A DNA stretch of 47,146 bases, from UHGV virus genome UHGV-1361989. The stretch is one strand, 5' to 3'. Shown piece after piece: positions 3,147 to 24,972 of this stretch. How positions within the stretch are numbered: the first letter of the stretch is position 1; each line of letters opens with the position of its first letter. Source of the DNA: a virus. The notes beneath the pieces are model-generated. The model had not been told where the DNA came from and ran no database searches. It saw only the letters and a program-made list of their open reading frames with translations. The translations under genes and the position numbers were made by a program.

Positions 3147-5574
3147 TGTTCCTGCTGGCACTAATCTGTGGAGATGGCTGGAGAATTCCGGTCTTCCATC
3201 TGACATCAGGATTGCACTGAATGGCCGCATTTTTGGCCCTGATGATGAATTGTCGATATCGTTAAAGCAAAACGATATTGTTAACATTTACTGTCAGCCT
3301 CGCGGCGCCATTGGCGACCTTATCAGCACGATACTCAAGCCTGTAACTAAGGTTCTTTCTTTTCTGCTGCCAAAAGCATCAACGCCATCAACCAGCACTG
3401 GCACGACGGTTGAATCACCCAATAACAGCCTGAAATCGCAAACCAATATTGCGCGAAATGGAGAGGCAAGACCTGACAACTTCGGTCAGATAAGGGCATT
3501 CCCTGACCTGATTCAGGAATCTCTTTTTGAATACATTGACGATTTGAAGTACGTCACAGAGTTCATGAATTTTGGCCTTGGGAAATACACCATTTCATCG
3601 GTTAGATATGCAGAAACAAACCTCGGGTCTTTACCCGGTGCCACTCATGTCATCTACAATCCAGGTGATGTGATAGGGCAAATCATTGAGCCTTACCAGT
3701 TCGACGGACTTGATGGTCAGGAGGTTTTAGGGCTAAACGAGTCAGAAGATACCCCGATAGAGACGGCAACCACAACATCTGTTACCAGTGGGAATTATGC
3801 TGGCGGTCAGCTATTAATGGTCATACCAAAAAACACTGATTTCGATTACTTTATGGGACTATCTTTGCCTCACTCCGTATCATTAACAATAAATATTACC
3901 TACAACTCTACATCAGGGCCAGTTACTGAAAACATTCAGCTTAGTGGCAACATCATTTCAGCTGAGGAAACTGAGACAGGCGTCATTCCTGATATTCAGT
4001 ATTTTTATAATTTCACATTCAATAACCTGACTGGCGCAAATCTTGGCAACCTGACAGGCGCAACCATCAACAACACTTATTTCCAGATTGTGGATAATGA
4101 GGCGCTTGTTGTTGGCCCATATGTTGGAGCTGTGGAATCAACGCAGGTATGGGTTCATGTTCAGTCTGAGCTTGGTCCTACCAGTGGCACGGCAGATTAC
4201 CTGATCAAGGTATGGGCGGTTGATGATAATGGGGATGCCATTCCAGGAACCGAGGAGCAGCTTGCAGACAGTATTGACAACCCATTCAATCAGACAACCA
4301 AAACCTATTATCGCACGTATAAGTTAACTCCTGCTTATGGGTTGGCTAAGTATGCCATCAGCATTGAAAGGACAAACAACTCAAACTCTGGCAACCGCGT
4401 AACGTTGCAGGCGGCGCACGCCATCAACATCCGCGAGAATGTAGTTTATCCTGATGACACCCTTGTTAAAGTCACGGTGAAGGCCACGCTTCAGCCCACA
4501 TCAGTTACTGAGCGCAAATATAATGCGCTGATCACCCGCTGGACTATCGGATATAACAGAACAACCGGGACAGTAGACTATACGTTAACACCATCAAGAA
4601 GTTTTGCAGATTCAGTGCTGCATAACTGGCTTATTACTGCTGGTCAGCCTGAAAGCACGATTGACGTGGGAAGATTATATGAAATAGCTGATGCGCTGCC
4701 TGATGAGCGTCTTGGGTACTTTGATTACACCTTTGACGATGAGGATAAGTCCATTGGTGAGCGAATCCAGACCATCTGTGATGCCGCTCGCGTAACTGTA
4801 TTTTGGGATGATGGCGTCTTGTCTTTCTCAAGAGATGAGCAAAAATCAACCCCTGAAACTGTGTTTAATACCAGAAACACGCAGGCTGATGGCTATAAAA
4901 TGTCTTATGACATGACTTTGCCAGGCTCATATGATGGCGTAAGCGTTCAGTACCGTGATCCAAACACAAACAAGCAGGCTTACGTTTATTATAAAGTTGG
5001 GGCATCTGGTATCGAACCTGGAGAGCCAACTAAGCCGAAAAAATTCGACATGCTATATGTTCGAAACCTGTATCAGGCAACAGACAGGGCTATGCTTGAA
5101 TGCAATCGCCTCATGTACTCTCGTCGTGGAATGGAGATAAAAGCGCTTGCCGATGGAGAGTGGGTGAACGTTGGCGATATGATTTCTGTTGTCGACATTT
5201 ATGATTCTGTACAGCAGACTGGCGTTATCCGATCAAGGTCTGGAAACGTATTTACCACCAGTGAACAGCTCACAGCAGGAAGCGGCCTGTTTGTGGTCAT
5301 CACTGGCGCCAATGGGAATGTGTCAGAACTCCTGGCTTGTACCGTTACTGGATTGAATACATTCGAGTGCGCATTACCATCTGATTTCGAGTTAAACATT
5401 TTTGACGGTGTTAATGTTCAGTCAGAATCAAGATATGCCATCTCCACAGAGGTTGAGCTTGATTCAACATTATGGACAGTCAGCCAGAAAACTCCAGGCA
5501 CAGATGGTACAGTCTCACTTACTGTAACTGAGTACAATGATGCCATGTACGCCTACACCAACCCTGTTGCATGA
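3094..5574 (+). CDS. distal tail / central tail fibre protein (lambda J-like), N-terminus with gpI-like beta-grasp segment
   Basis: 826 aa, Thr/Asn/Gly-rich beta-structure. Position after K-like gene. RBS aagg upstream of ATG 3094. Confidence 0.55.
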
Positions 5575-5603
5575 TACAATAGGGCAATTAATGATTATGG
5601 AGA

Positions 5604-7769
5604 TTGCAGCCGATGGCTACTACCCCAACTAACAAGCCAATTCCTTCTGAAGACCCGCGCGACCTCAAGTTTAACGCCGGTAAGATTGATGAAGAGGTTA
5701 ACGGAAGTTCTGATTACTACACCGACCGATTTGACGCACAGAGGCTGACTAATACCGGCAGGAATCACCAGTTTCAGACAGCACAAGATGAGCGTGAGGC
5801 AGAATTTGTTGCGTCACAGGTGGATAAAGAAGCGCGTTTTCAGCAATTCCTCTTAAATTCTGGTTATCAGTTTTTGGGAGATTATGAAAATGGGCCATAT
5901 ACAATAACGGCGCTTAACCAGGTAATTCGTTATCAGGGTGAATTCTGGCGCTTAAACGCATCAACAACACCTCCATATACAACTACAGGGATTGATAACA
6001 CCTCTTGGGCGGTAGATGTGACCCATCTTGTAAGCGTTGGTGATGCAAAATTAAGACAGGATTTAAGTTCAACTACTTTGCCTGGTTTATCATTAGTCGG
6101 TCTTTCTGGTAATGGTAATTTAAACCATCTGCTAGGCAATCATACCTCTCCTGAGGCGTGGGGAGTGGTGCCAAATTCAGAAGCATCAGCTCATGCAAAC
6201 TCTAGAAAGATGTTTGACATGTTTGAAAGTTTAAGATCGAAAGGCGGCGGTGTCGTATTCTTTACTCCTGGTAGAACATACTGGATTGACTTTATTCAGT
6301 TCGTACCAAGTAACGTTGTTATAATTGGCTACGGCGCTACATTAAAGCAAATAAACCCTTTATCAATGTATGGACGCGGTGGTTTTGTGTTTGGTAGCAG
6401 TAGGGAATGGAACTATCAAAAAGCTAAAACGGCATATCTTGCAAACTCCTACCCTGCATCTGTATCTGATTCATCAATGCCTGAGTTGTCTTTAGGTTCA
6501 TATTTAAGGGATAACCAATCATATTTACAGTGTGAAAGATGTACTGTGTATGGTTTGCGTATGGAAACAAAATTTACAGATTCTACATATTGGGGTGGTT
6601 ATGCATTTAATACAGTAAACGCGCAACACATCAGATTTTACGATGTTAAAGGAAGTGGTTGGACACAGCTATTCAATTTCGGTAATGATAGTTCCGCATC
6701 ATCACCATCTTGTGATGATGTATATGCATTCAACTCAACAGTAGAAAGCGCAGATCTTGTTCGTTCTTACTATGCGATTGGTTTTATAGCCAACTCTACA
6801 AACTGTGGTTTTGATACAGCGGTTCTTCTAAAACCAATGACAGTTGATAGCATTAATGGGTCTGGTGCAGCAACAAACCACACTGAAAACTGCGTAATCA
6901 GAAATATAAACATACCAGATTTAGGGTTAACTTCATCATCTGAAGGTGTTTTATTAAATAACTCTAAAGGTTGTTTAATAGAAAATATTGATATCAGGAA
7001 TTGTAAAAACGTAGTTAGTACATACTATACCGTCGATTCATACAATGACACTGCAAAACCTAATATTTTAAGGAATATTAGTGGTCAAGGCGTTAACATT
7101 ATAGCAATCAGGTCTAAATATGCACACATTGAATCATTTGAAGGAGTAGGTACATACACGAATGAAGTTCAATTTGCAAACAACAATGCATCAGGCAATA
7201 CCATAAATAAAAAACCAAAATCAATTGGTTTTGGTGGGACTAACTTACAGTCATGGTTTTTAACAAATAATACGGTAAAAGGATGGTCGCGAAAATATTT
7301 TTATATTCGGCCATCCGAAATTTTGTTGAACGATAAAGTAGACACTTTTTCATGGAATTATAATAAACTTGTCGCAACAAAATCAGGAGTAAATCTTTAC
7401 TTTATGTGGCGAGTTCCTGACGATATCAATGCAATTGATGATATTCGCGCTTTTATTAGATTTAACACTGCCGTAGATCAAGATGCTTCTGTTGCTGGAT
7501 CTACAGTAGAGGCAAGTTTGATACAAATGGTCGCTTTCGATGGTAACATTGGTGAAACACCATATGTTGCTTTTTCAAACAGCAAGATTGCAACAGCGGG
7601 TGTAGAAGACACAACGGTAGTAACGCAAATGGGTAGCAATGTACCAGGTTTGGTTTATATGGATGATACTACACATGGTTTATCCTATAGCTGGTATGTG
7701 CTGTTTAAAATGACAAATAATGTCAACAATAACTACATGAAAGAAATCAGAGTAGCGGGGTATAACTAA
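5604..7769 (+). CDS. tail fibre / tailspike with beta-helix receptor-binding domain (possible polysaccharide depolymerase)
   Basis: 721 aa. Conserved-looking N-terminal anchor, then Asn/Ser/Gly/Thr-rich repeats typical of right-handed beta-helix. Coding DNA is markedly AT-rich relative to rest of genome. Confidence 0.55.
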   Translation: MQPMATTPTNKPIPSEDPRDLKFNAGKIDEEVNGSSDYYTDRFDAQRLTNTGRNHQFQTAQDEREAEFVASQVDKEARFQQFLLNSGYQFLGDYENGPYTITALNQVIRYQGEFWRLNASTTPPYTTTGIDNTSWAVDVTHLVSVGDAKLRQDLSSTTLPGLSLVGLSGNGNLNHLLGNHTSPEAWGVVPNSEASAHANSRKMFDMFESLRSKGGGVVFFTPGRTYWIDFIQFVPSNVVIIGYGATLKQINPLSMYGRGGFVFGSSREWNYQKAKTAYLANSYPASVSDSSMPELSLGSYLRDNQSYLQCERCTVYGLRMETKFTDSTYWGGYAFNTVNAQHIRFYDVKGSGWTQLFNFGNDSSASSPSCDDVYAFNSTVESADLVRSYYAIGFIANSTNCGFDTAVLLKPMTVDSINGSGAATNHTENCVIRNINIPDLGLTSSSEGVLLNNSKGCLIENIDIRNCKNVVSTYYTVDSYNDTAKPNILRNISGQGVNIIAIRSKYAHIESFEGVGTYTNEVQFANNNASGNTINKKPKSIGFGGTNLQSWFLTNNTVKGWSRKYFYIRPSEILLNDKVDTFSWNYNKLVATKSGVNLYFMWRVPDDINAIDDIRAFIRFNTAVDQDASVAGSTVEASLIQMVAFDGNIGETPYVAFSNSKIATAGVEDTTVVTQMGSNVPGLVYMDDTTHGLSYSWYVLFKMTNNVNNNYMKEIRVAGYN

Positions 7770-8097: not shown

Positions 8098-8601
8098 TCA
8101 GAATGGGATATCATCATCAAAATCCATCGGCGGTTCGTTTGACGGTGGTTTTGACGTGTTTGATGGTTGCTGAGGTTTACCCCATCCTGATTGCTGATTA
8201 CTTCCTGACTTTTGCCGCTGCTGTGACTGTTGGTTTCCATTATCACTTGATTTACCACCAATCATTTGCATAACGCCGTTCATAGGCTGCAAGACGATTT
8301 CAGTAGTGTATTTTTCAACACCGCTTTGATCTGTCCATTTGCGAGTACGTAATTTTCCTTCTACATACACCTGAGAGCCTTTGCGCAGGTATTCGCCAGC
8401 CACCTCTGCCAGCTTTCCGAAGATAACCACGCGATGCCATTCTGTCTGCTCTTTCTTTTCCCCTGTTGCTTTATCGTTCCACTGCTCTGATGTTGCCAGA
8501 GACAGATTGCACACAGCGCCGCCAGAAGGCATATATTTAACTTCCGGGTCTTGTCCGAGAGTGCCCAAAATGATTACTTTGTTGATTCCTCGAGATGCCA
8601 T
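8098..8601 (-). CDS. ssb: single-stranded DNA-binding protein
   Basis: OB-fold N-terminus, Gly/Gln-rich linker, C-terminal acidic tail ending DDDIPF. Confidence 0.95.
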
Positions 8602-8610
8602 AATTTACCC

Positions 8611-9651
8611 TTAAAAGTTTTCGATGTTCTGTTGAGATGTTGATGGCTTCTCTTCGTTTGCAGATGACGTAGGCGCATCTGCTTTCTGGAGTTTTGCCGG
8701 GTTGAAATCGTCCTGCGGTGTGATAGTTACCGCTGCTGGCGATTCATCATTAATGAATGACTCAATGCGCTCATACTCTTCTGCTGATGCCTTCAATGTA
8801 GGCCAGATTGCGCGAATTTTTGCTTTCACTGAATCAGGCAAGTTAACTGCCTCGGCAGTTAGCGCAGCAACTCCTTTTGACGCCGTCATTTGAAGTTTAG
8901 AGCGCCAGTGCTCAAACTCTTCGTCGACCTTGACACCTGAATCCACCCATTTAATTAAACCTCGCCCATGAGCTTCGCCTAAGTATCCTTCGTGTACACT
9001 ATCACGGCCTGAATCAAAGAAAATTGGGCGCAATTCTTCTGGTAGCTTGGTAAATTCCTGAATTTTTCCATTATCATACATCATCATGCTTACTGTCATT
9101 TCAAACATAAAATCTTTTTCGCATACAGCATGCAATCCGAGGGATTCAGGTTTCTTGGGGTTTTTAAAGCTCGTTTTCTCTCTGGCGCGTAAACATACAA
9201 TGATATGCATATTGCTCTGCAAAAGAGCGCTCATGAATTTTTTATGTTCAGACTTAGCTCGCTTCCAGTCTGCCATTGCCTTACCCTGCAATAGTGGTTG
9301 CTCTGCAATATCATTGCATCCTCCTTCACCTTCCCATTCGTGCGATCCTGAATCAATAACCAGAACCTTAACGCCTGCCTCCTGAAATTCCTCGATAGCC
9401 TGGCGGTAACGAGCTGGACTAAATGGCGCATACAAATCAGCGTGCATAAATGGACCGTCAAGCTCTCCAGAATAAAGCCTGCCTCGACCATTTTCAGAGT
9501 CAAGAAATCCAATTTCTTCTGGTTTATTAACCATACCTCGCGCCATCTTTAGTGCCGTAAGTGTCTTTCCACTACCAGACTGCCCTGAAATGCCAATCAC
9601 TACGCGAGAACCTGAGCGCTCTGCTGGCTTAATGTTTAAAATACCCATCAC
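8611..9651 (-). CDS. RecA-like / AAA_24-type ATPase (Sak4-like recombination-associated)
   Basis: Walker A GISGQSGSGKT near N-terminus. Adjacent to SSB and PD-(D/E)XK nuclease. Confidence 0.6.
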   Translation of the reverse strand: MMGILNIKPAERSGSRVVIGISGQSGSGKTLTALKMARGMVNKPEEIGFLDSENGRGRLYSGELDGPFMHADLYAPFSPARYRQAIEEFQEAGVKVLVIDSGSHEWEGEGGCNDIAEQPLLQGKAMADWKRAKSEHKKFMSALLQSNMHIIVCLRAREKTSFKNPKKPESLGLHAVCEKDFMFEMTVSMMMYDNGKIQEFTKLPEELRPIFFDSGRDSVHEGYLGEAHGRGLIKWVDSGVKVDEEFEHWRSKLQMTASKGVAALTAEAVNLPDSVKAKIRAIWPTLKASAEEYERIESFINDESPAAVTITPQDDFNPAKLQKADAPTSSANEEKPSTSQQNIENF

Positions 9652-9671
9652 TTCACCTCATTTACTATAAA

Positions 9672-10628
9672 TTACAGGTTAAATTGCTTTTTGAACCATT
9701 CTGGCGTTTCCATTTCGATGACCGGATTACCCATTGAGTAACCGGGCCATGAATTGGCTTTTTTGCATGCCTTATAGATTTCCATAGCGCTGCGCAGCTG
9801 AATGCGGCCAATACGTAACTGCTCATCCGTCAGGCGAATCAGCGCAGGGATGAATGGCGATTTCTTCTCCTGAACCAGGAGGTTTACAGATCGAGGTGCA
9901 TGCCCATAAGCCTCTACAAACATGTCGTGCTGCATTGCCATTTTCATAAAGTACCCGAGCCGCGCTGCATGGCGGAAAAACTCATCAGGCTTGGCGCTAA
10001 CCGCTGTTTTGTAGTCAATAATGTCGCCACCGCGAGTAAGACAGTCAAAGCGTACCTTTGATGGTTCGCCAAGCAACTGACCGAGAATTGACACCTCGGA
10101 ATAAGCACCAGAAAGCAGACTGCTGTAATAGCTGTTTGCATGGATTACGGCGCGCATCTGCATGATAGCGTCATAATCAGTTCCATCAAGCATATGCTTA
10201 CCAGTAGCGGACTTCTCTGCCTCTTCTCGGATAACATCGTAAATCTGCACTGGCTCGCCAGTGGCCTGAATAATTTTAATCACTTCGGCTTTAGTCTTAC
10301 CTGAAAGACCTTTGATGCCTCGCTCTTTCGCCCATGAGTTCATGTCAGAAGCAGTTACCAGCACCGTGCGATTGCCATCTTTGTCTTTTGGAAAATCTTC
10401 GACAACTGGCATGCGGGCATATTCTGCTTCGAAGCGCTCAGGCTCAAGCAGTGCGGTATGGCTACCAGTACCAAATATCAGAGCCTTTGACTGCTCATCT
10501 TCTTCGTCTTTGTAGCGCCACGCTGCCGGGCAGCGGTCATAGATGTTCCACAGGCCAGAGCCGTTGATGTGCTCGGTGTCAGCGTGGTAATCATGATTGC
10601 TTAATTCATTGTTAAAGTAAACCTTCAT
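9672..10628 (-). CDS. PD-(D/E)XK family exonuclease (Cas4/RecB-like)
   Basis: Motif GGDIIDYKT (D-x-K catalytic motif) near C-terminus. Recombination module context. Confidence 0.65.
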   Translation of the reverse strand: MKVYFNNELSNHDYHADTEHINGSGLWNIYDRCPAAWRYKDEEDEQSKALIFGTGSHTALLEPERFEAEYARMPVVEDFPKDKDGNRTVLVTASDMNSWAKERGIKGLSGKTKAEVIKIIQATGEPVQIYDVIREEAEKSATGKHMLDGTDYDAIMQMRAVIHANSYYSSLLSGAYSEVSILGQLLGEPSKVRFDCLTRGGDIIDYKTAVSAKPDEFFRHAARLGYFMKMAMQHDMFVEAYGHAPRSVNLLVQEKKSPFIPALIRLTDEQLRIGRIQLRSAMEIYKACKKANSWPGYSMGNPVIEMETPEWFKKQFNL

Positions 10629-10631: not shown

Positions 10632-11135
10632 TCACCGCCTATAAAATTCCTTAAAATTAACTCGCCTAAATTCCTCTGCGGCATTTTTAGCATCCTCAAT
10701 TGATGAGTATCTGCCAAGATTTTTCATCTTTCCATTTATTCTTCCGTATGCCATCCACTTCTTGTTTCTCTTGTCCCAATAAACACCCTTTACGCCAGAG
10801 GTGTTATTTTTAAACATACCTTTGTTAAAGGAACTCTCCGACTTGCTTGCAAGTCTTAAGTTTTTTATTGAGTTATTGCTTGTATTTCCATCAATGTGAT
10901 CAACAATCATTCCATCAGGAATTTCACCGTTAACATACGTCCATATGAATCTATGCAATAACCATTTTCTCCTTCCGAATGAGATAGCTTTATATTTCGC
11001 ACCTCCTCTTGAGGTAATTTCATGTTTATGAATTGCAGAATCACCTGCTTTCGCTAATCCTCTACTCTTTCTCCAAAAAATAGAGCCTTCATCAGCATTA
11101 ACAATAAGCCATTCATCTACATAATATTTATCCAT
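10632..11135 (-). CDS. HNH homing endonuclease with AP2 DNA-binding domain
   Basis: VDHIDGNTSNNSIKNLRL (HNH_3) plus SGVKGVYWDKRNKKWMA (AP2). Paralogue of 20240, 21387, 32584, 44227. Confidence 0.85.
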   Translation of the reverse strand: MDKYYVDEWLIVNADEGSIFWRKSRGLAKAGDSAIHKHEITSRGGAKYKAISFGRRKWLLHRFIWTYVNGEIPDGMIVDHIDGNTSNNSIKNLRLASKSESSFNKGMFKNNTSGVKGVYWDKRNKKWMAYGRINGKMKNLGRYSSIEDAKNAAEEFRRVNFKEFYRR

Positions 11136-11177: not shown

Positions 11178-11594
11178 TTACTTGTCAACTCCAAAATAGA
11201 ATAACGTCGCTCTTTTTATCTCCTCAAGACCATAAGCAATGGCTCCAAAGTGACCCTCTGCAATGGCGCACTCAAGAACATCAATCTGCGATGGCGATAC
11301 TTTTGATTTTTTCTTGTCGCGCCTCTTCAGTTCAATCAGGCCGCATTTATGATTAATGCCGTTGGTTAGTATCACGTTGTCGCTTACGCCGCTCCTGACG
11401 CCCATCTTGCGGCGTTTTTCGACGAATTGCGGGCCGCTCTTTGTGCCGGTCTCATTTGGAACATGAAACCACAGAGCATCAGGAAAACGGTACTGCATCC
11501 ACAGACCATACGCCATCTGGTCAGTGCTTTCCAGCGGACACTCCCCACGATAACCGCTATCAAATACCCATATCCCACTATCAAGCTGCTTCAA
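11178..11594 (-). CDS. VRR-NUC domain nuclease
   Basis: GVSDNVIL ... IELKRR ... SPSQ spacing matches VRR-NUC D/E-x-K core. Confidence 0.65.
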   Translation of the reverse strand: MKQLDSGIWVFDSGYRGECPLESTDQMAYGLWMQYRFPDALWFHVPNETGTKSGPQFVEKRRKMGVRSGVSDNVILTNGINHKCGLIELKRRDKKKSKVSPSQIDVLECAIAEGHFGAIAYGLEEIKRATLFYFGVDK

Positions 11595-13488
11595 TTTGTT
11601 CTCCTATGAAATCCTTGCGGTGGATGATATCTCGGCCTTTATCGTTAAAACGATGCGTAATGCGTTTAGGCGCGCGGATTAAACCGGCGTAATGCATGAA
11701 AGTCTTCGCATCATGACAGTCCATCATTTTCTTAAGCATGGACTTATCTTCAAGATGAGGAAGCAGAGCCTTCATTTTAAACATATCGCGCAGATGCTTT
11801 GGCTTGCCTCCGAACGGATAAAACACCTCATTTGCCCAGCCGGTCTTGCCATCAGCTTTTACCACCAGGTAACGATAAAGAACCCCCTCAGCGTCTTTGG
11901 TCAACTCGACTTTAAAATCTTGTACATCTGTCCATTCTTTATCGGTATAAGCACGCTCATTAAGCGCCGCATTAGGGTCGCGCAAAACGTGATCGCATTG
12001 ACGGCAATAACGAGCTGTCGGATCGTTCTTTGTTCCACATCCATCATCAAAAATACGGATGCCGTGCTTGTCGAAACCACAGCGAATGAAGCTGAAAAAC
12101 TCTTCGCATCGTCCATCTGGAGACGTTGAGTCTTTACCGATGCAGCGCCGTGCATACGGGCTGTTCATCGTCTGGCATTTAGGGCATGGAACCTGCTCTC
12201 CGCTGCGCTTTGCGCGCTGTGCTTCTGCTTCCTCAAGAATAGGGTCTTCGTACAGACCGCCCAACTCGAACATGGTTCCGGTGAAATCTAATACAAGGTG
12301 ATCATCTTTCCTGTAACCTGCTGCAATTTGCTCAGGTTTTAAAAGACGCATACCACGGCCAAGCAACTGAACAAGAAGGGTAAGTGACATTATTTTTCGC
12401 AATATAACACTCGTGTCCCATAGTGGGATATTCACACCAGTAGTAAGCGCGGCAATCTGCAACACATATTTAATGCGACCTTGGTAAGCATCCTTTAGCG
12501 CCTTCTGTCGAGCCTTGATCCCCATATCTTCAGTGACAATTGCATAAGTGCCATCTGGCAGGTATTTCGCGGCTTCTTGACAGTGTTTTTTACCAGCACA
12601 CGTTATAAGAACCCCGTTGCGATTTGCGGTTAATTCCATAACTTTAAGCATTATTTTTTGCGTGAGAGTACCCTGATCGAGAATCTCTTTTTGCATCTGC
12701 TTTAATTGCTCAAAAGTAAAATCTTGCACTCCATCTTCATCCGATGAATGAAAGTTAGAGAGGTCATAGTGAAGGTCGTCAGCATCATGCAAGCCAAAGA
12801 TGGTAGGAACCAGAAAACCACGATCAACCATGTATTTAGTATCAATGCTAACCACTTCCTTTTTCCAGAATGCGCCCTTGATTGACTCAACGCCACGAAA
12901 TGGTGAGCCAGTAAGGCCGATAATTCTCAACTCATGACCATGCGTGTCTTTGCAGCGCTTCATGAAGGTATTTATTATAATTCCGTACTGCGTTGTTGCA
13001 TCACCTACAACATCAGCCCAATCCACCTGGTGACATTCGTCAATGATTAGGTAACGGGGGACAAAATCGCTTAATGGCTGTTTTTTATCATCCGCATCAA
13101 AAAGAGAGTTGACGACCGTTCCCTCTGTACCCATAAGCAACGGATAAGCAGTTGACTTGCGACCAAGCCCAGCGCTAAACAATGAATTTTTAACACCAAA
13201 ATTCCAGCACTCCTCAGCATTCTGAGAAATAATTTCAGACTGTCTGGCGAGTACCATTCCTTTATAACCCATGTCTGAAAATCTTCTCGCAATCATCGCG
13301 ATCATGATTGTCTTCCCAGCGCCGACACTGGCTGTTATATAAAAAGGCCCTGCATAATGACGAATTTCCTGAGCTGCCAAGTGGTAGCAAAGAAACTGAT
13401 AATCACGAGGAGTGATTTCTCCTGTGCTTATCGTTGATTGTATTGCTGTGATGTCTATTTCACTTATTAGCTTATCTATCTTGTGCAT
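11581..13488 (-). CDS. SF2 DEAD/DEAH-box helicase with C-terminal zinc ribbons
   Basis: Walker A SVGAGKT, DEAH-type IIDECHQ, helicase C motifs, CPKC...CRQC cysteine pairs. Confidence 0.85.
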   Translation of the reverse strand: MHKIDKLISEIDITAIQSTISTGEITPRDYQFLCYHLAAQEIRHYAGPFYITASVGAGKTIMIAMIARRFSDMGYKGMVLARQSEIISQNAEECWNFGVKNSLFSAGLGRKSTAYPLLMGTEGTVVNSLFDADDKKQPLSDFVPRYLIIDECHQVDWADVVGDATTQYGIIINTFMKRCKDTHGHELRIIGLTGSPFRGVESIKGAFWKKEVVSIDTKYMVDRGFLVPTIFGLHDADDLHYDLSNFHSSDEDGVQDFTFEQLKQMQKEILDQGTLTQKIMLKVMELTANRNGVLITCAGKKHCQEAAKYLPDGTYAIVTEDMGIKARQKALKDAYQGRIKYVLQIAALTTGVNIPLWDTSVILRKIMSLTLLVQLLGRGMRLLKPEQIAAGYRKDDHLVLDFTGTMFELGGLYEDPILEEAEAQRAKRSGEQVPCPKCQTMNSPYARRCIGKDSTSPDGRCEEFFSFIRCGFDKHGIRIFDDGCGTKNDPTARYCRQCDHVLRDPNAALNERAYTDKEWTDVQDFKVELTKDAEGVLYRYLVVKADGKTGWANEVFYPFGGKPKHLRDMFKMKALLPHLEDKSMLKKMMDCHDAKTFMHYAGLIRAPKRITHRFNDKGRDIIHRKDFIGEQIEAA

Positions 13489-13496: not shown

Positions 13497-14270
13497 CTAT
13501 GGCATGTCAGGCCAGTAAACGTTGCTCTTAGATCTGTTTTCGCTTGGAGTTAACAATTGAAGGTTATGCCAGCAGTGAAGACCGCAAACCAACTTGCTAT
13601 TTATTGGAACAATATGGTCAACGTGCATTCCAAGACTGGCTGCCATTTCATAAACCTTCTCTATCAGAACCCTTTCAGATTCGAACCAAGATGGAATTGA
13701 CCTTCTTTTTAGATATTTATATTTACGCTGGTGATATCTAACAATATTTTTATTTTCAGCCCTCCAGTGTCTTGATTGCTCATTGTGCTTATCTTTGTTT
13801 TCATTGTAATACTTCTTTGATTTTGCCTTTATCTTGCTCTTATTTGCTGCGTAATTACTTTTCTTGAACTCTGATTGGCACTTCTTACATTCAGGCCTAA
13901 GACCATCAAGTGATGATTTGTTTTTATTGAAGTTTTCTTCATTTGCATCAAGAACTGAGTTGCATTTAGAGCAGACCTTCCTTCCATCAACAAGATATCT
14001 CAGCCTTTTACCTTTGTTTCCATCGCATGATTTACAATGAGATTTTAAACCAAGCCTCATCTTCTTGTCTGAGTAGAAGTAATCACTTGTTGCAGGAAGC
14101 ATTAGATTGCATCTTGAGCATTTCTTTTTTGTCCCTGTGCTTTCGCAACCTGCACTTTCCTGAGCAACATTTTGCTTTTGCAGTTCCGATAAACTCACTT
14201 CCGCAAACCTCGCATTTCTTAACGGTGATAGCCATTTCTTACCCTCTATTGTAACGGTTAATTGTTTCAT
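13497..14270 (-). CDS. HNH endonuclease with N-terminal CxxC zinc-finger repeats
   Basis: Repeated CxxC pairs. C-terminal HVDHIVP...N..LLT..ENRSK HNH core. Confidence 0.75.
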   Translation of the reverse strand: MKQLTVTIEGKKWLSPLRNARFAEVSLSELQKQNVAQESAGCESTGTKKKCSRCNLMLPATSDYFYSDKKMRLGLKSHCKSCDGNKGKRLRYLVDGRKVCSKCNSVLDANEENFNKNKSSLDGLRPECKKCQSEFKKSNYAANKSKIKAKSKKYYNENKDKHNEQSRHWRAENKNIVRYHQRKYKYLKRRSIPSWFESERVLIEKVYEMAASLGMHVDHIVPINSKLVCGLHCWHNLQLLTPSENRSKSNVYWPDMP

Positions 14271-14312
14271 TGCAAGTAACGATTGATTGTTTCTTGTGTA
14301 AAGATTACAATG
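14271..14312. promoter_or_regulatory. overlapping divergent sigma70-like promoters (TTGCAA-16-TACAAT leftward; TTGATT-17-TACAAT rightward)
   Basis: Hexamers read directly on both strands between HNH (-) and primase (+). Confidence 0.35.
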
Positions 14313-14342
14313 AATCTACATCATAGTCAACTGGAAGAAATT

Positions 14343-15236
14343 ATGCGATACGACTGGAAGGATATAGAGCCTTTAATGGTAGGCAACTGGCAGGCTGCCA
14401 TCATGTCGATAGTAAATGTCGATGTGAGAATTTTCAATGGTAAACATCAGCCATGCCCAAGTTGCGCTGGCAAGGACAGGTTTAGATTCGATGACCACTT
14501 AGACTACAAAGGTGACGGCGGCGCCATCTGCAACCAGTGCGGAAACGGCAGCGGAATCACCTGGCTAATGAAGCTGTCAGGAATGACTTTCCCAGAGTCA
14601 ATGGAGGCACTGGCCGGATTTCTTAACATGCACCCGCGCGAAAAACTTGAGGCGATTAGAAAGCAACTTCCGAAGGTCAACCATGCTTCTGACTACCTGA
14701 CAGAGGCAGAAGTGACGGCCATCATGGAAAAAGCAGGAGGCGACACCATAACCGGCAAAACTGGTGAACTGGTGGCGATACCACTCTATATGGCTGGAAA
14801 TATGACGCCATGCAATGTGGCTTTTCTGGCTGATGATGAAAGCGTGTCATTTCGCGCGGGTTTCAGCCATGAGTACACTCGCGGAAGACTTACGCGCGGC
14901 GCAGTTACACCCATCGGCGATAAGACTGAATGGACATACCTGGTTGCGGATTACTTCGATGCCTGGCGAGCACATCGGCTTACCGGAGCACATGTCTGGT
15001 GTTGCTGGTCGCCTGAAAACATGTGGGAAGTTGTGCGCAATGTGAGAGATGAGCAGCGAGCCAAACTACGCTGCATTATTAATAATAATTTCGATGAGGT
15101 TTGCGCCGCCGAGAATGCAGGTCTGCCGATACTGATTACTGATGATGGTCAGGATATCCGTTACAGCGGCGCCATCAGAAAAAGGTTGTATAAACCAGAA
15201 GATCTATTTGAACTTCTAAAAAACAAACCCTCCTGA
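14343..15236 (+). CDS. DNA primase, Prim_Zn_Ribbon-type N-terminal zinc-binding domain
   Basis: HQPCPSCAGKDRFRFDD...GGAICNQCG matches primase-helicase zinc-binding domain. Start placed at ATG after the putative -10. Alternative starts 14283/14310 in frame. Confidence 0.65.
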   Translation: MRYDWKDIEPLMVGNWQAAIMSIVNVDVRIFNGKHQPCPSCAGKDRFRFDDHLDYKGDGGAICNQCGNGSGITWLMKLSGMTFPESMEALAGFLNMHPREKLEAIRKQLPKVNHASDYLTEAEVTAIMEKAGGDTITGKTGELVAIPLYMAGNMTPCNVAFLADDESVSFRAGFSHEYTRGRLTRGAVTPIGDKTEWTYLVADYFDAWRAHRLTGAHVWCCWSPENMWEVVRNVRDEQRAKLRCIINNNFDEVCAAENAGLPILITDDGQDIRYSGAIRKRLYKPEDLFELLKNKPS

Positions 15237-18076: not shown

Positions 18077-18355
18077 ATGAATAAATTACTGGCAGTTGTT
18101 CTACTAGCCATCGCTAACGCAGCAAGCGCTGAAACGATATGGGTCACAAAGTATGCGCTGACCCGTGGCATTCAGAAGTGCGAAAGCGCACAGCTATTCG
18201 CAGATGGTCAGGTGGCTGTGGTTGGCGATGTTTACTTTAAACGTGGTGAATACTGGCTTGATGAGCAACAGGCAAAAGAGCATGCAGAGACTTTGCGGCA
18301 ACGCCGTGTATCTGCGCTGATGCGTGAGCTTGAGCGTTTACAGGCGGCTAAGTGA
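18077..18355 (+). CDS. hypothetical secreted/periplasmic protein
   Basis: N-terminal signal peptide MNKLLAVVLLAIANAASA/ET. Confidence 0.5.
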   Translation: MNKLLAVVLLAIANAASAETIWVTKYALTRGIQKCESAQLFADGQVAVVGDVYFKRGEYWLDEQQAKEHAETLRQRRVSALMRELERLQAAK

Positions 18356-18361
18356 GGATTT

Positions 18362-18811
18362 ATGGATATCGAAATTAAAGAAGTTCAGGAAATTATTAAA
18401 AACCTTGAGAGTAGTGGCGAGCTATCAATCAAAGAGGAAAAATACCTCAAGGTGGCAAAGCTGTGCATGCAGGTGGTTGCGGAAAATGTGGGGATAAAGG
18501 GGGCAATCCATCAACTAAAAAATATTGATTATCAAAATGAAAGCATGAATGACGTGACATTGGCAGAAGAGATTGGGTTCAATGCAGCTGTGATGGCCAT
18601 GTATCGCTGGGTTCCTAAAACCCCCGGCTACGATGCGATCGGTGGCGGGGTTAAGGCTGATGGAGTGGATGAGTTTTCGAAAACTCTAGAGGGGGCCGCT
18701 GACATTTGTGGTAAGTCAAAAGCATGGGAGGCGCAAGAAAATTTACTTGATTTTGCTGAGCGTGGATTCGACTTCGCCAAGCAGCTGCGCGAGGGGGCTA
18801 ATCATGACTGA
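18362..18811 (+). CDS. hypothetical protein
   Basis: 149-aa ORF, tight spacing. Confidence 0.5.
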   Translation: MDIEIKEVQEIIKNLESSGELSIKEEKYLKVAKLCMQVVAENVGIKGAIHQLKNIDYQNESMNDVTLAEEIGFNAAVMAMYRWVPKTPGYDAIGGGVKADGVDEFSKTLEGAADICGKSKAWEAQENLLDFAERGFDFAKQLREGANHD

Positions 18812-19205
18812 TATCACCGAACTGGCGCTACTCGTCAGTAAAGCGAAAGCGTCTGTATTTACCCTGGAATATATCTCGCAGTTTGAGCCTGCTGATATCG
18901 ACTCCGATGACGTTGATTTGCGGTTTGAGGTAGATGGCCGAGATACCGGCACCAACGTTTCTATCGTCGATGAGTGCGGGCAAGCTGCAAAGGTTATTGG
19001 CACGCTGGTAGAGGCGCTGGAGAAGGCGCAGCAGCAGATTACTCAGCTGGAGTCCCGCGCCGTGAAGCTGCCAGATATCAATGAGTACCTTGCAGAGGTT
19101 CACGATAAAACGCTAAATCGGGCCTTCCGGCTACTGGCTGAAGGTGTGCGTGCTGGTGATGTCGCTGCTATGCGCGCCGCTGGCATCAAGGTGGAGGCTG
19201 AGTGA
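18804..19205 (+). CDS. hypothetical protein
   Basis: ATG 18804 overlaps previous stop by 8 nt. ORF-track start 18708 trimmed. Confidence 0.5.
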
Positions 19206-19393
19206 TGAAAATGGGTGAACACATGGAGCCAGTTATCGAGCTCCTGGAAGAACTGAACGGCAACAACACTGACGCAAAACTAAAGCTACTCGCCCTGGTC
19301 ATCTCGGAATACATGTTAAATACGGATGTTACTGGCTTTGAGGTCACCGCGGGGAAGATGAAAGTTTCCGTAGATATAAGCGTTGAGGAATAG
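19202..19393 (+). CDS. hypothetical protein
   Basis: ATGA overlap with upstream ORF. Confidence 0.45.
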
Positions 19394-19397
19394 CCCA

Positions 19398-19832
19398 ATG
19401 ACTAATAACCAGTTAGCAGAAAACAGCGTAAATCAGCTTTTGAACAGCGTCAGACTGGCGCGCGATAACGCAGAGCGTGCTGATAACCGCGTTGACCACT
19501 CGTTTTATCACGCGCTGACGATTGCTCTGGAAGAGCTACAGGAACGCCGCAAGGCTGACAGAGAGCCGGTGGCAGAAGTGGTTTCAATTTATGGCGACCC
19601 CGAAGCCTTTGGGGAGCGAGAGATTAGACCGCTTGTCGGTATTCAGCAAATGCCATACGGGACGAATCTCTATCGCCACGCGCAGCAGCCTGTAGTGCCG
19701 GATGGTTATGTGGTGGTGCCGAAAGAGCCTACGGAGGAAATGCTACAGGCTTCCTATCGTGAAGCGGCTGTGTATAGCCCAACGGCTTATCGAGCGATGA
19801 TTGCAGCCGCACCGCAGGAGGTTAAAAAGTGA
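19398..19832 (+). CDS. hypothetical protein
   Basis: RBS gagga. Start trimmed from 19383. Confidence 0.5.
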   Translation: MTNNQLAENSVNQLLNSVRLARDNAERADNRVDHSFYHALTIALEELQERRKADREPVAEVVSIYGDPEAFGEREIRPLVGIQQMPYGTNLYRHAQQPVVPDGYVVVPKEPTEEMLQASYREAAVYSPTAYRAMIAAAPQEVKK

Positions 19833-20079
19833 AACCCTACATCATCCGCAGACTGATTGCTGTAGCCTGCGTTGCATTCTGGATTGCTGCTGCCTTTACC
19901 GTCTACTTTATCGTGAGGTGAATTATGTTGTGGAGCGATATTCAGGCGGCGTGTGAAGAAGCTGACTTTCTGTATGAAGATACCGGTAAGCATCATGACG
20001 TCATTCAGGTTGGCAGCATGATGATGGTGGTTGAGCATAACAGCATGCTTCGGCATATGTACTCAACGACGAGGTATCA

Positions 20080-20262
20080 GTGATGCCGCAAAAATCAAAA
20101 CAGGAGGTGTGGCAGAAGGCTCGGCTCGAAGGTGTTGACCACTTCATATCAGCAATCGCAAAAGCCTTCCCTGATGCGATTGAAGTGGTTCATGTTAAAT
20201 CCCCACGCAATGATTTGTGGTGCAGGAGCGGTAAGTGTGATGAAAAGAATAGACTGGAATGA
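20080..20262 (+). CDS. hypothetical protein
   Basis: RBS gaggt. 3' end overlapped by HNH gene start. Confidence 0.35.
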   Translation: MMPQKSKQEVWQKARLEGVDHFISAIAKAFPDAIEVVHVKSPRNDLWCRSGKCDEKNRLE

Positions 20263-20725
20263 GCTGTTTGAATACGACAACGGAAATCTGATATGGCGGG
20301 AGGATAGTGGCCGCAAGGCAAGAAAAGGTGAGGTTGCAGGCCACTCAGGGTCAAAAGGATATACGTCGATTTGGTGCTCTGGACGAAAATACTTTGCGCA
20401 CAGAATTATATGGGAAATGCATAATGGCCCTATGACTGGCGAATTGGAGATTGACCATATAAACCATAACCCTGGAGACAACAGGATTGAAAATCTCAGG
20501 CTGACAAATAGGGGAGGGAATCTAAAAAACAAATCTAAGTACTCTAGCAATAGCAGCGGAGTAACGGGCGTACACTGGAGGAAGGATAAGCGAAAGTGGC
20601 AAGCAAAAATAAGGGTTAACAAGAAGTTCATACATCTTGGGTATTTCAACGACATACTTGACGCGGAACTGGCAAGAAAGAAAGCAGAAGAGGAGTATGG
20701 GTTTCACGATAATCATGGTGTATAA
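20240..20725 (+). CDS. HNH homing endonuclease with AP2 domain
   Basis: IDHINHNPGDNRIENLRL + SGVTGVHWRKDKRKWQAKI + C-terminal NHG. Confidence 0.8.
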   Translation: MKRIDWNELFEYDNGNLIWREDSGRKARKGEVAGHSGSKGYTSIWCSGRKYFAHRIIWEMHNGPMTGELEIDHINHNPGDNRIENLRLTNRGGNLKNKSKYSSNSSGVTGVHWRKDKRKWQAKIRVNKKFIHLGYFNDILDAELARKKAEEEYGFHDNHGV

Positions 20726-20755
20726 TAGTTTCATTAATCATCACCTCACCACCCT

Positions 20756-20786
20756 TTAAGCCAGCATTGCGCTGGCTTCTTTTTTA
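20756..20786 (+). terminator. rho-independent terminator
   Basis: AAGCCAGC attgc GCTGGCTT + CTTTTTTAT. Confidence 0.55.
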
Positions 20787-20842
20787 TCTACGCCATGTGG
20801 TAAGATATGTCCTATGTGAGTTACCCAAAGGACACATATAAA

Positions 20843-21283
20843 ATGGCAAATCCAAACCCTAAGCACAAATTTTCATCCAGCAATCAGCCTCCACCAAGAG
20901 GAAAAAGCTACAGAACAGTGCTTCTTGAAGCATTACGAGCTGCAAATACGCCGATGAATGAGATTGAATTCGTCACGTACTACATCAACAAGGCGATGAC
21001 ATGCGAGGACGCTCAGGCTACTGGCATGCTGCGTGAAATATTCCTGCGACTTAACCCAATTCCAAAGCCTGTGGCGCCCCCTGTTGAGTTTGATTTTCCT
21101 GCCGACGGCACACCTGTACAGAAGATGGATGCGATTATCAAGGGCGTCTCTACTGGCGTTGTTCCAGCCGATATTGGCAAGATGATGGCGGACATTCTGA
21201 AGGCAGGGCTTGATATCGAAGAGGTGACAGAGCTTGCAGCGCGCCTTGAGCGACTGGAGAAGTTACTGGAGCAGCAACAGTAA
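20843..21283 (+). CDS. terminase small subunit (putative)
   Basis: Basic N-terminus, C-terminal coiled coil LERLEKLLEQQQ. Immediately upstream of HNH and TerL. Alternative start 20807. Confidence 0.5.
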   Translation: MANPNPKHKFSSSNQPPPRGKSYRTVLLEALRAANTPMNEIEFVTYYINKAMTCEDAQATGMLREIFLRLNPIPKPVAPPVEFDFPADGTPVQKMDAIIKGVSTGVVPADIGKMMADILKAGLDIEEVTELAARLERLEKLLEQQQ

Positions 21284-21386
21284 CTTATTTATAATAATTA
21301 ATGCGGCAAAGGGTAGCTCCCTGCCCGGATTGGTCTCCGGGCTGCCGCATCCAACCAATAGACCGCCTGTAACCGAGGATTCAATC

Positions 21387-21905
21387 ATGCCATCATTAAA
21401 AGAGTTGCCCATCACTCAAGAGAGACTTAAACACCTCCTACATTACAATCCAGACACCGGTGTTTTCACGTGGTTAAGTAAGCCAAGCAGAAGAATAAAT
21501 TCTGGAAGCATTGCTGGCAGGATAAAACCTAAGAAGGGGTATGTGGAAATAGGAATAAGTGGAAGAATCTATCTTGCTCATAGGCTGGCATGGCTTTACG
21601 TCTATGGAGCTTGGCCTGAAGAACAAGTTGACCACATTAATGGCATTCGCAACGATAACAGGATTAAAAATTTAAGACTGGCCACAACATCACAGAATCA
21701 GTGGAACAAGAGGATGCAAAAAAACAACACATCTGGAATTAAGGGAGTTAGCTGGGATAATCAAAGGGGAAAGTGGATAGCCCAATGCTGGTTATTTGGC
21801 AAGTATCACAAAATAGGTAGGTTTTCATCAATTGATGATGCTGATCGTGCAATAAGACAGTTCAGGGAGAAACATCAGGGAGAATTTTGCAATCATGGCG
21901 CGTAA
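21387..21905 (+). CDS. HNH homing endonuclease with AP2 domain (between TerS and TerL)
   Basis: VDHINGIRNDNRIKNLRL + SGIKGVSWDNQRGKWIAQ + NHGA. RBS gagga. Confidence 0.8.
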   Translation: MPSLKELPITQERLKHLLHYNPDTGVFTWLSKPSRRINSGSIAGRIKPKKGYVEIGISGRIYLAHRLAWLYVYGAWPEEQVDHINGIRNDNRIKNLRLATTSQNQWNKRMQKNNTSGIKGVSWDNQRGKWIAQCWLFGKYHKIGRFSSIDDADRAIRQFREKHQGEFCNHGA

Positions 21906-23319
21906 AAGACTCTCAAGCGTTGCGATAGAAAAACTTGAGCAAGCAGTAGGCAATTCAACTGCAAAACCAGAGTCTTCTGTTTTCGGTATTGTCGATAAGC
22001 TATTGCCTGACGGTAAACCGAATGTGGTTAAGTGCCTTAAAATGACAGCCACTGGCGTGTCAGAAACAGACGAGAAGCCAACAATATTAATCCCTGAGCG
22101 AATGGAACTGCTGCTTTATCCTCGCCGTTTCAAGGTGTTCTATGGGGGTAGGGGCAGCGGAAAGACGGCTAACGTTGTTTCTTACCTTATAGAAAAGGCA
22201 AGATTCCGCAACAGCCGCGTCGGATGCTTCCGTGAGATACAGAACTCAATCAAAGAATCAAGCTATGCCGAACTGGTTGATGAGATAAACAGAAAAGGCC
22301 ACGCTCAGGAATATCGTTGCGTTGATGGTGAGATAACCCACCACACAACGAAATCAAAGTTTGTTTTCCGTGGTCTGTGGAGAAATATAACCGCCATCAA
22401 GGGTATGGCTGGACTTACAGATGTATTCTGTGAAGAATCTGAGAACATCAGCCAGATTTCATGGGATACGTTAATCCCAACGGTGCGCGCCTCTGGTTCT
22501 GAAATTATTATTGTTTTTAACCCAAATAAAGAGACGGACCCGACGTGGACCAACTTTGTTGAGCCTTACATCGGCAAGATGGTTGACGGCATATATCAGG
22601 ATGATGACATCGTTGTTGTTAATGTTAACTACGTCCACAACCCGTGGTTCACGGAAGAACTTAAGCAGCACATGAACCAGATGAAAGCTGTGGATTATGA
22701 TCGCTACCTTTGGGTGTATGAGGGCAAATTCAACAAACGTAGCGATGAACAGGTCTTCGGCGGCAAGTGGCGCGTTGATAACTTCGAGGTCAAGCCTGAG
22801 TGGCATGGTCCATACTTCGGCATGGACTTCGGATTCTCCACCGATCCAACCGCAATGGTTGAGGTTTATATCGAAGAATTACCGGGCGGGCGACGCAATA
22901 TTTATATTAATCGCGAGTACGGCAAGGTTGGGCTTGAGATTACCGATACGCCAGCTGCAATGGAGCAATCATTTCCTATGGCTAAGCGCGCACGATGGTA
23001 TGCCGACTGCGCTCGACCTGAAACCATCAGCCACATCAAGCGCGCTGGATTTGATATTCATCCCTGCAACAAATGGCCTGGTAGTGTTGAGGATGGCGTG
23101 ACGTGGCTCAGGGGTTGCGACAGCATCATTATTCACGACCGATGCACTGAAATGAAGAATGAGGCTGCGATGTATAGCCATAAGGTCGACAAGAACACAG
23201 GCCTTGTGCTGACTGAAATAGTTGATAAATACAACCACTATTGGGATGCGGTGCGCTATGCGCTAAATGACTACATCGTACAGCGCGGCTCTGGATGGAT
23301 TAGGCGGAGCAGGAGATAA
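21895..23319 (+). CDS. terminase large subunit
   Basis: Walker A GGRGSGKT, ATPase then nuclease-domain acidic residues. 474 aa. Confidence 0.9.
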   Translation: MARKRLSSVAIEKLEQAVGNSTAKPESSVFGIVDKLLPDGKPNVVKCLKMTATGVSETDEKPTILIPERMELLLYPRRFKVFYGGRGSGKTANVVSYLIEKARFRNSRVGCFREIQNSIKESSYAELVDEINRKGHAQEYRCVDGEITHHTTKSKFVFRGLWRNITAIKGMAGLTDVFCEESENISQISWDTLIPTVRASGSEIIIVFNPNKETDPTWTNFVEPYIGKMVDGIYQDDDIVVVNVNYVHNPWFTEELKQHMNQMKAVDYDRYLWVYEGKFNKRSDEQVFGGKWRVDNFEVKPEWHGPYFGMDFGFSTDPTAMVEVYIEELPGGRRNIYINREYGKVGLEITDTPAAMEQSFPMAKRARWYADCARPETISHIKRAGFDIHPCNKWPGSVEDGVTWLRGCDSIIIHDRCTEMKNEAAMYSHKVDKNTGLVLTEIVDKYNHYWDAVRYALNDYIVQRGSGWIRRSRR

Positions 23320-24790: not shown

Positions 24791-24972
24791 TGTCGTATTT
24801 CTTCCTGATATTCGTAATCACAAGCAACACGTCCAATATGCAGGTGGTGCCGATGCAAAGCATGGAGCAGTGCAGGGCGGCCATTACGGCAATGAAAATC
24901 GCTGAGGAAAAGCGGACGTGGCATGATGTAAGTCCAAATGTTGACAATTTGCAATGCGTTGAGGTGAAGTGA
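24787..24972 (+). CDS. hypothetical protein
   Basis: ATGA overlaps on both sides. Confidence 0.35.
   Translation: MMSYFFLIFVITSNTSNMQVVPMQSMEQCRAAITAMKIAEEKRTWHDVSPNVDNLQCVEVK

Follow-up and report, generated by a model that had tools for sequence, protein, structure and literature searches.

What accounts for six HNH-type endonuclease genes in one stretch of phage DNA? The question is raised by the UHGV virus genome UHGV-1361989, the whole 47,146 bp of which, as analysed here, we call the window. We consider it highly probable that the six genes (H1 to H6, Table 1) are free-standing homing endonuclease genes: five would encode an I-HmuI-like HNH_3 domain joined to an AP2-type domain and one a zinc-ribbon protein of HNH type, and they would represent separate lineages, each with its own site, belonging to a gene pool shared within the Roufvirus/Skatevirus group. 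The window corresponds to approximately a whole siphophage genome in circularly permuted form, since the tape-measure gene (1-1785 and 45638-47146) crosses both of its ends. The nearest records belong to the genus Roufvirus: Vibrio phage pYD38-A and Aeromonas phage pIS4-A match about two thirds of the sequence at about 95% identity. Many Klebsiella phages follow at about 90%; Skatevirus-type phages of Salmonella and E. coli were more distant matches. The window phage is a Klebsiella-type siphophage of the Roufvirus/Skatevirus group.

We found that each of the six sites exists without its endonuclease gene in close relatives from this group. The initial annotation, made from the letters of the window, had described the genes as free-standing mobile endonucleases and had pointed to endonuclease-free alleles in related genomes as the comparison to make; the presence/absence polymorphism observed at all six sites agrees with that description. 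Relatives were also found to hold other cargo, or endonucleases of other types, at the same sites. As had been proposed, the six genes adjoin conserved replication, recombination, packaging and tail genes. The whole-genome view of presence and absence covers about ten relatives, and the numbers of carriers given below are BLAST coverage classes, in which duplicate GenBank and RefSeq records and about 40 Seszw variants are included. Two relatives, Flyfo Tbat1_6 (hereafter Flyfo) and pYD38-A, had copies carrying nonsense mutations, of H2 and H5, respectively. In every comparison made for H1-H5 the ratio of nonsynonymous to synonymous divergence (dN/dS) was between 0.10 and 0.17, therefore these endonuclease proteins are under purifying selection.

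The same comparisons bear on the origin of the five HNH_3-AP2 copies, for which the phrase "expansion of paralogues" had been used. True expansion by duplication and divergence within this genome lineage would explain why the domain architecture and the family are the same in all five. However, the copies are only 30-44% identical to each other, they are distributed independently among relatives, and four of them have a counterpart at the same site in another phage with 90-99% identity (58-62% for H3). Since the positional counterparts are far closer than the copies are to each other, the genes point to separate colonisations, and an origin by duplication is hardly credible. The "high load" of endonucleases reported earlier, with its five HNH_3 copies, reaches the upper end of what is usual in this group and no more: KpnS_VR6602 also has five and many Skateviruses have four.

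Table 1. Endonuclease genes of the window and the neighbouring features considered in the text (aa, amino acids; nt, nucleotides).
Feature	Positions	Strand	Length	Context and matches
H1	10632-11135	-	167 aa	Between the exoVIII-like gene (9672-10628) and the phrog_824 gene (11178-11594); ends FYRR
H2	20240-20725	+	161 aa	Intergenic, upstream of the putative TerS gene, just before a terminator-like hairpin (20758-20778)
H3	21387-21905	+	172 aa	Between the putative TerS and TerL genes; 11-nt overlap with TerL
H4	32584-33108	+	174 aa	Inserted in the Lar-like gene after codon R57 (behind KWNTR)
H5	44227-44712	-	161 aa	In a minus-strand cluster, flanked by the major tail gene (43008-43763) and the DUF6246/tape-measure genes
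H6	13497-14270	-	257 aa	Divergent junction of helicase (11581-13488, minus) and primase (14283-15236, plus)
Putative TerS	20807-21283	+		Named by position only; protein 100% identical to those of pYD38-A and VR6602
TerS-to-H3 leader	21284-21386	+	103 nt	Core of a conserved island at about 21221-21460
TerL	21895-23319	+	474 aa	Terminase_3 (1.7e-35), Terminase_3C (5e-13)
Seventh site	31645-31670	+		Empty in the window; HNH_3-AP2 gene here in KP591P3 (6336-6851) and VR6602 (504-1019)
Lar-like gene	32373-32603	+	76 aa	Lar_restr_allev (7e-12, residues 9-57)

Family membership of the five proteins H1-H5 was clear at the HNH domain. All five open reading frames (ORFs) were present and intact at the positions and on the strands first reported, and all matched Pfam HNH_3 (PF13392) with 59.9-80.2 bits against a cutoff of 24.8 (E-values 1.1e-19, 4e-17, 4e-18, 1.9e-16 and 8e-23 for H1 to H5) as well as PHROG 99 "HNH endonuclease" (1e-53 to 1e-73). 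A six-frame profile scan of the window returned exactly five HNH_3-AP2 copies and zero fragments. The full-length alignment had 26 invariant positions, which include D-H-I, N..I.N-L-R and the AP2-like N.SG..G...KW...G...A..A; D-H and N-L-R were invariant in five of five, and an asparagine nine residues past NLR was present in H2-H5. A profile made of the five proteins matched I-HmuI (PDB 1U3E) at 2.4e-8 and the AP2 protein WRI1 at E=0.05.

The AP2 part was harder to recognise by family models. With Pfam AP2 (PF00847, cutoff 33.3) H1 scored above the threshold (36.5 bits, 6e-9) and H3 (28.6 bits, 1.7e-6) and H5 (17.7 bits) below it; H2 and H4 gave no match at E≤0.01. Because only H1 clears the Pfam threshold, the least AP2-like copy, H4, was chosen for an AlphaFold model, the one modelled among the five. 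The model (predicted local distance difference test score, pLDDT, 74.5) had a beta-beta-alpha unit (E68-71, E84-87, H89-95) followed, in the AP2-like part, by a three-stranded sheet (E108-112, E117-122, E125-130) and a helix (H133-146). Its best PDB match was I-HmuI 1U3E (E 3.2e-4, probability 1.00). Also among the top four matches were AtERF1 1GCC (probability 0.66, TM-score 0.48 on the target) and WRI1, both weak, with non-significant E-values of 0.3-0.9. The AP2-like segments could be aligned in five of five, and with HNH_3 in every copy the earlier claim of five homologous HNH-AP2 endonucleases stands. The further claim that all of them end in NHG has to be amended: NHG lies near the end in four of five, H1 having the terminus given in Table 1, and in H4 it is followed by 19 residues of old Lar tail. 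In H2 and H5 the gene's own stop comes one codon past NHG.

As a separate observation, an 86-aa ORF of pYD38-A (24880-25137) and its equivalent in pIS4-A matched the endonuclease profile in its AP2-like part and nowhere else (E 1.8e-6), and it may encode a stand-alone AP2 domain protein. The same profile scan, at E≤0.01, gave no equivalent match in the window.

At the H1 site the flanks of the window and its relatives align up to 10628 and again from 11185. In KP591P3 a mere 44 bp lie in between; pYD38-A and Flyfo have ORFs there, of 64 aa and 147 aa, respectively. Among 189 flank-matching records, Salmonella phage 64795_sal3 (sal3) alone carried H1, with 90% protein identity. We observed that nucleotide identity between the two was 88-92% in the gene and 60-86% in the flanks. 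The synonymous divergence dS was 0.42 for H1 (dN/dS 0.12) compared to 1.53 for the adjoining exoVIII gene, so that H1 is much younger than its surroundings.

H2 is a clean insertion of about 490 bp, in place of which pYD38-A, pIS4-A and KP591P3 have 36 bp. It was found in three phages (VR6602, MK54 and Flyfo) among 204 records, with 96% identity to VR6602 and dN/dS of 0.17. The Flyfo copy (20998-21483) has a nonsense mutation at codon 48; H2 in the window is intact. For H5, the empty site of KP591P3 measures 74 bp, Flyfo has a DUF2591 gene in this place, and carriers made up 16 of 285 records. The copy in pYD38-A (44493-44978) was 99% identical to H5 and had a nonsense mutation at codon 7, H5 of the window again being intact. 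A promoter scan around H2 and H3 gave no sigma-70-like sites.

The insertion of H4 is the most intricate, and the initial annotation, which had this gene overlapping the Lar-like and winged-helix genes, understated it: H4 sits inside Lar. Without an endonuclease the Lar protein ends ...KWNTR-NGHLYTADDYKQDAMERANGL before its stop, and in the window it ends ...KWNTR-GGFVYSNSDYEDINDEVRS. The last 19 Lar codons of the window (GGFVYSNSDYEDINDEVRS and stop) are thus derived from the cassette and stand in place of the native NGHLYTADDYKQDAMERANGL. The insertion point is directly behind the zinc-ribbon domain of Lar; in the endonuclease-free KP591P3 and pYD38-A the junction reads ...AAATGGAACACCCGCAACGGCCACCTCTA.... 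At its other end the H4 ORF finishes ...EFKNHG-HLYTADDYKQDAMERANGL. Behind NHG it takes in the native Lar tail (33046-33108), which has been retained together with the overlap between its stop and the beginning of the MarR-like gene (33098).

Carriers of H4 were about four phages in 143 flank-matching records: MK54 and VR6602 (98% amino acid identity), 64795_sal3 (91%) and Bas78 (90%). Compared with VR6602, nucleotide identity was 98-100% inside the cassette and 91-96% outside. In the E. coli phage Bas78 this substitute tail and this junction recur, but the Lar allele is another one and so is the gene downstream; the cassette, made of substitute tail and endonuclease, has therefore entered one and the same codon in different backgrounds.

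H6 required a different line of evidence. The initial annotation had listed it as a sixth HNH gene with CxxC fingers, and four CxxC pairs (C51, C79, C100, C128) are indeed present; the gene is on the minus strand, and Pfam HNH (PF01844) was matched only below the cutoff (E=0.2, 12.3 bits against 21.4). We assign H6 to the HNH superfamily of nucleases with moderate confidence because of its C-terminal motif, HVDHIVP..S.LVCGLH...NLQLL..EN.SK.N.YWPDMP, its match to PHROG 1035 "endonuclease VII" (1e-22) and local structural matches of the beta-beta-alpha-Me type, not because of Pfam. An invariant D-H...N...N...K C-terminus was common to 755 H6 homologues, and D218, H219, N236 and N245 were invariant in 36 homologues (the numbering is shifted by one for the full-length protein). 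The predicted structure (pLDDT 79.6) has two zinc ribbons and a helical bundle and closes with a strand-strand-helix unit at about 216-247. This unit superposed locally on the HNH domain of Cas9 (root-mean-square deviation 2.1 A), McrA (1.7) and colicin E7 (1.6), all at E>0.05, and the model also had a weak local match to Hpy99I. A search of PDB with the H6 sequence only was discarded, as it returned zinc-finger repeat noise, and its sole ββα-Me nuclease match, again Hpy99I, aligned to the zinc-ribbon region and not to the C-terminal motif. NCBIfam had no match for H6, and none for H3 or TerS.

The spacer between helicase and primase that H6 occupies is 75-93 bp long in KP591P3 and Flyfo, and in pYD38-A and pIS4-A it is the HNH_3-AP2 type of gene that sits there; this site therefore accepts different endonuclease families. 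H6 was detected in at least eight of 302 records, with 98% identical copies in ZCKP8, ZC2, ZCKp20p and VLCpiS13f. We also noted that the close H6 homologues P0002, P0004 and P0005 (62-74% identity) bear an extra HNH_3 domain, after about residue 49 in P0002 and at or near the N-terminus in P0004 and P0005, which gives two different HNH-type modules per protein.

How such genes would spread can be outlined as follows. In a co-infection the endonuclease would nick or cut the endonuclease-free allele of its own locus, and the phage recombination system (exoVIII-like nuclease, annealing protein and single-stranded DNA-binding protein, 8098-10628) would repair the break from the carrier genome, copying the endonuclease gene and some of its flank into the recipient. 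The carrier genome itself would be immune, as we propose, because the insertion disrupts the target. The cassettes seem built to do little harm: they lie between genes or right at the end of one, and the H4 cassette brings a replacement C-terminus for Lar. In H3, in H4 and in the seventh-site copy of relatives, the cassette finishes with its NHG codons, and the ORF continues in resident sequence until a stop overlapping the next start; in VR6602 the seventh-site copy runs in this way from NHG to a stop that overlaps the ATG of the next gene. Because these three ORFs run to a stop overlapping the start of the next gene, translational coupling would be kept. We also considered whether the NHG codons (AAYCATGG) serve in general as the source of the next gene's ATG. 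This holds for H3 only; as a rule it was rejected, since H4 reads CAC instead of CAT, and at H2, H5 and the seventh site the downstream gene starts at an ATG in another place.

H3 differs from the other copies in its history. Its end, AAT CAT GGC GCG TAA, includes the TerL start codon. In Seszw_1 it is TerS that ends, with ...CAGCAGAATGGCTCGTAA, on the same TerL start, and a 51-aa membrane ORF of KP591P3 ends likewise. H3 was present in 19 of 210 records and absent from pYD38-A, pIS4-A, KP591P3, Flyfo and Seszw_1. Its positional counterparts, in Skatevirus-type phages and always abutting TerL, had 58-62% identity (VR6602, INT55); dS was saturated, dN/dS was 0.13, and the gene was as diverged as TerL. 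Neither sign of lateral spread, an age below that of the flanks or presence on another background, was found for H3. An 8-nt direct repeat, CAATCATG, flanks the H3 ORF; as a candidate target-site duplication it was rejected, since the repeat is not conserved: its left end is replaced by CAAGAATG in VR6602 and related genomes.

TerS of the window is Roufvirus-like and TerL Skatevirus-like, and the change of type falls exactly at H3. The TerS named in the initial annotation fits by position; it had no family match in Pfam or NCBIfam and fell into PHROG 9747 (unknown function), so the name is a positional guess. According to the authors of the KlebP_265 paper, no small terminase is identifiable in this phage group (PMC11769527). 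The TerL protein of the window was 81-82.5% identical to the Skatevirus-type TerL of VR6602, INT55 and Seszw_1 and 65-73% identical to those of KP591P3 and Flyfo, from the Roufvirus side that is nearest elsewhere in the genome; it is a mosaic allele. Within TerL, positions of about 22100-22700 were 87-100% identical to INT55 and VR6602 and the remainder 55-78%, which suggests that the central segment is a recent gene-conversion tract. In pYD38-A (18350-20869) and pIS4-A (4426-6945) TerL has 839 aa compared to 474 aa in the window, owing to a LAGLIDADG-type intein in the Walker A/P-loop (GGRG/C...HN/SGKT, with slashes at the intein borders); the TerL of the window is without an intein.

The position of H3 had led to the suggestion that it may be co-opted for packaging. 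As a terminase accessory it would stimulate or perform the packaging cuts, as HNH proteins do in HK97-like cos phages; small zinc-binding HNH proteins encoded beside terminases assist cutting there (PMC3592412). Consistent with this are the translational coupling of H3 to TerL through the overlap of the two genes, the counterparts at exactly the same position in many Salmonella, Klebsiella and E. coli phages, the combination of great age at the site (saturated dS) with continued purifying selection (dN/dS 0.13), and the unusually conserved leader, with a predicted structure, that precedes the gene. On the other hand, in Seszw_1 TerS directly overlaps TerL with no HNH gene between them, and the TerL of this phage is 97.3% identical to that of the HNH-carrying INT55 as well as the closest to that of the window (82.5%); H3 therefore appears dispensable for this kind of terminase. 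The gene is likewise lacking in pYD38-A, pIS4-A, KP591P3 and Flyfo, whose TerS proteins are 96-100% identical. The relative KlebP_265 (93% identity) was reported to be terminally redundant and completely permuted, that is, of headful type and not cos, and its authors note horizontal transfer of TerL (PMC11769527); HNH-assisted cutting was described for cos phages (PMC3592412). Moreover, the TerL of the window retains its own nuclease domain, Terminase_3C, and H3 is of the I-HmuI/HNH_3 type with AP2, the architecture of the four plainly mobile copies. Marks of the HK97 gp74 type were missing from H3, which matched HNH_3 and AP2 only and has no Cys4 site. We regard a packaging role of this kind as very unlikely and take H3 to be a homing endonuclease gene like the other four.

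The leader before H3 deserves separate consideration. Together with the last 50 nt of TerS and the first 25 or so codons of H3 it forms an island with 87-97% mean pairwise identity among seven diverse endonuclease-carrying genomes. The conservation exceeds that of TerL, though TerS of INT55 is only 51% identical and the rest of H3 58-68%. The leader itself was about 97% identical among the window, VR6602 and INT55, the flanking genes being highly diverged. It is predicted to fold into a Y shape, with a closing stem (21301-21308/21343-21350) and two inner hairpins, at -33.5 kcal/mol and with a modest z-score of -1.83; the corresponding z-score of the pYD38-A spacer, -0.47, was not significant. 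One stem pair varies between GC, GU and AU, and the closing stem is kept upstream of TerL in the HNH-less pYD38-A. Rfam had no known family in the leader. Given the modest z-score and covariation from a single pair, we refrain from calling the leader a structured RNA.

On visual comparison, the spacer of pYD38-A resembles the leader through the GAGGA ribosome-binding site. This resemblance suggests that insertion of the endonuclease ORF separated TerL from its native leader. Exact matches to the leader in IMG/VR came from endonuclease-carrying genomes only; no empty allele with the leader directly on TerL was among them. The island may act as a leader in translation, as a signal in packaging or as a linker in recombination. 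A broader proposal, which we consider unlikely, combines two elements. H3, the island or both would be integrated in the control or function of the packaging operon in the Skatevirus-type terminase clade, either as a pac-linked element or through a leader that captured the TerL ribosome-binding site and couples TerL translation. More generally, the HNH-AP2 family would insert as stop-less cassettes ending in NHG that borrow the resident stop/start overlap and may bring a spare C-terminus.

Several points weigh against the interpretation of the six genes as homing endonucleases. Nuclease activity, target sites and homing are presumed from sequence, for these proteins and for close relatives alike. 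Identity to relatives does shift across H1 (98% to 88%), H3 (94% to 71%) and H6 (75% to 85-92%), in keeping with the published picture of nuclease genes at the borders of exchanged DNA (PMC10448857), but these shifts concern three sites and four comparison genomes and are anecdotal. H3 is, by its divergence (58-68% among counterparts), old at its site and yet under purifying selection, which is not required of a purely selfish element. As for H1, the catalytic residues of I-HmuI, which we take to be D74, H75, N87 and N96, with N96 as a metal ligand, include an asparagine that H1 lacks: it has Ser101 at the position equivalent to N96. Since the sal3 counterpart has the same serine, H1 may act in some other way or have no nuclease activity.

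A rival view is that the genes are kept mainly as weapons in competition between phages. They would cut relatives or satellites in the same cell and so keep out their markers, whether or not the endonuclease gene is copied in the process; selection would then favour the advantage to the phage and not selfish spread alone. Purifying selection on H1-H5 (dN/dS 0.10-0.17), the long persistence of H3, the placement beside conserved genes and the breaks of identity across the sites are all in line with such a function, and both marker exclusion and co-inheritance of an endonuclease with neighbouring "cargo" genes are described in the literature (PMC10448857). The nonsense copies in relatives and the rarity of most copies, however, speak against a strong benefit. 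As the mechanisms overlap, sequence data do not separate weapons from homing; we hold a function mainly as weapons to be possible but doubtful, and retain homing as the explanation of the six genes.

Outside the endonuclease loci, we noted two neighbouring tRNA genes on the minus strand (42762-42835 and 42839-42916). ARAGORN reports only tRNA-Arg(TCT); Rfam also detects the second, with a CAT anticodon and 48 bits, which is homologous to tRNA-Met of relatives and is altered in the acceptor-stem region in the window.

Relatives of H3 were found by tblastn in 3,585 of 50,697 phage records, and GenBank records of this phage group already label such genes "HNH (homing) endonuclease". The finding is real and represents ordinary selfish homing-endonuclease behaviour, correctly classified; modestly new are only the substitution of the Lar tail, the stop-less cassettes ending in NHG and the conserved leader. 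About 3.3 kb (7%) of the phage genome would then be dispensable selfish cargo. The exact empty-site sequences for each insertion could be of use for minimising or engineering Klebsiella therapeutic phages and for choosing substrates in nuclease tests. The switch of type between TerS and TerL at H3 gives a clean natural example of nuclease genes as boundaries of exchange. The Lar insertion with its substitute C-terminus and the H3 leader are small concrete leads on how free-standing endonuclease genes limit damage and are expressed.

Among known systems, the closest structural reference is I-HmuI of Bacillus phage SPO1, whose structure (1U3E) is the founding one for Pfam HNH_3. The alignment takes in the beta-hairpin region at the N-terminus and the beta-beta-alpha-metal core (DH...N...NLR...N), with all motif residues kept in four of the five window copies and serine at N96 in H1. 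I-HmuI is intron-encoded and has helical and helix-turn-helix DNA-binding modules at the C-terminus, whereas the window genes are free-standing and have an AP2-type C-terminal domain.

The combination of HNH and AP2 is a recognised family of homing endonucleases from phages, cyanobacteria and ciliates, according to Magnani (2004) as cited in PMC10448857. In ICP1-like and other phages, multiple copies per genome beside essential genes are documented, and endonuclease genes of this kind are described there as the borders of exchanged DNA (PMC10448857). The "IPA-HNH" genes of ICP1-like phages (PMC10448857) are likewise free-standing, multi-copy, located beside essential genes and at exchange boundaries. 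Their HNH domains are too diverged for Pfam HNH_3, unlike those of the window, which match it strongly, and the host group here is that of Roufvirus/Skatevirus siphophages of enterobacteria. With the HNH proteins of the HK97 gp74 type (PMC3592412), H3 has in common that an HNH-superfamily gene adjoins the terminase genes. Those proteins are small, zinc-binding and of Pfam HNH type, belong to cos phages and are required for cos cleavage; in contrast, H3 is an HNH_3-AP2 gene of phages that probably package by headful, and close relatives whose terminase genes are near-identical lack it.

With the Seg and Mob endonucleases of T4-like phages ("intronless homing") the window genes share presence/absence polymorphism and a position between conserved genes or at the end of one, and in both cases the flanks are probably co-converted. 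The domain combinations differ, Seg being GIY-YIG and Mob being HNH with a zinc finger. In Aeromonas phage Aeh1 the insertion of mobE splits nrdA. There too a free-standing endonuclease gene lies in a coding gene, the function of which is not destroyed. Unlike nrdA of Aeh1, Lar is not split in two working pieces: it receives a new C-terminal tail from the cassette, and its former tail has become the end of the endonuclease ORF.

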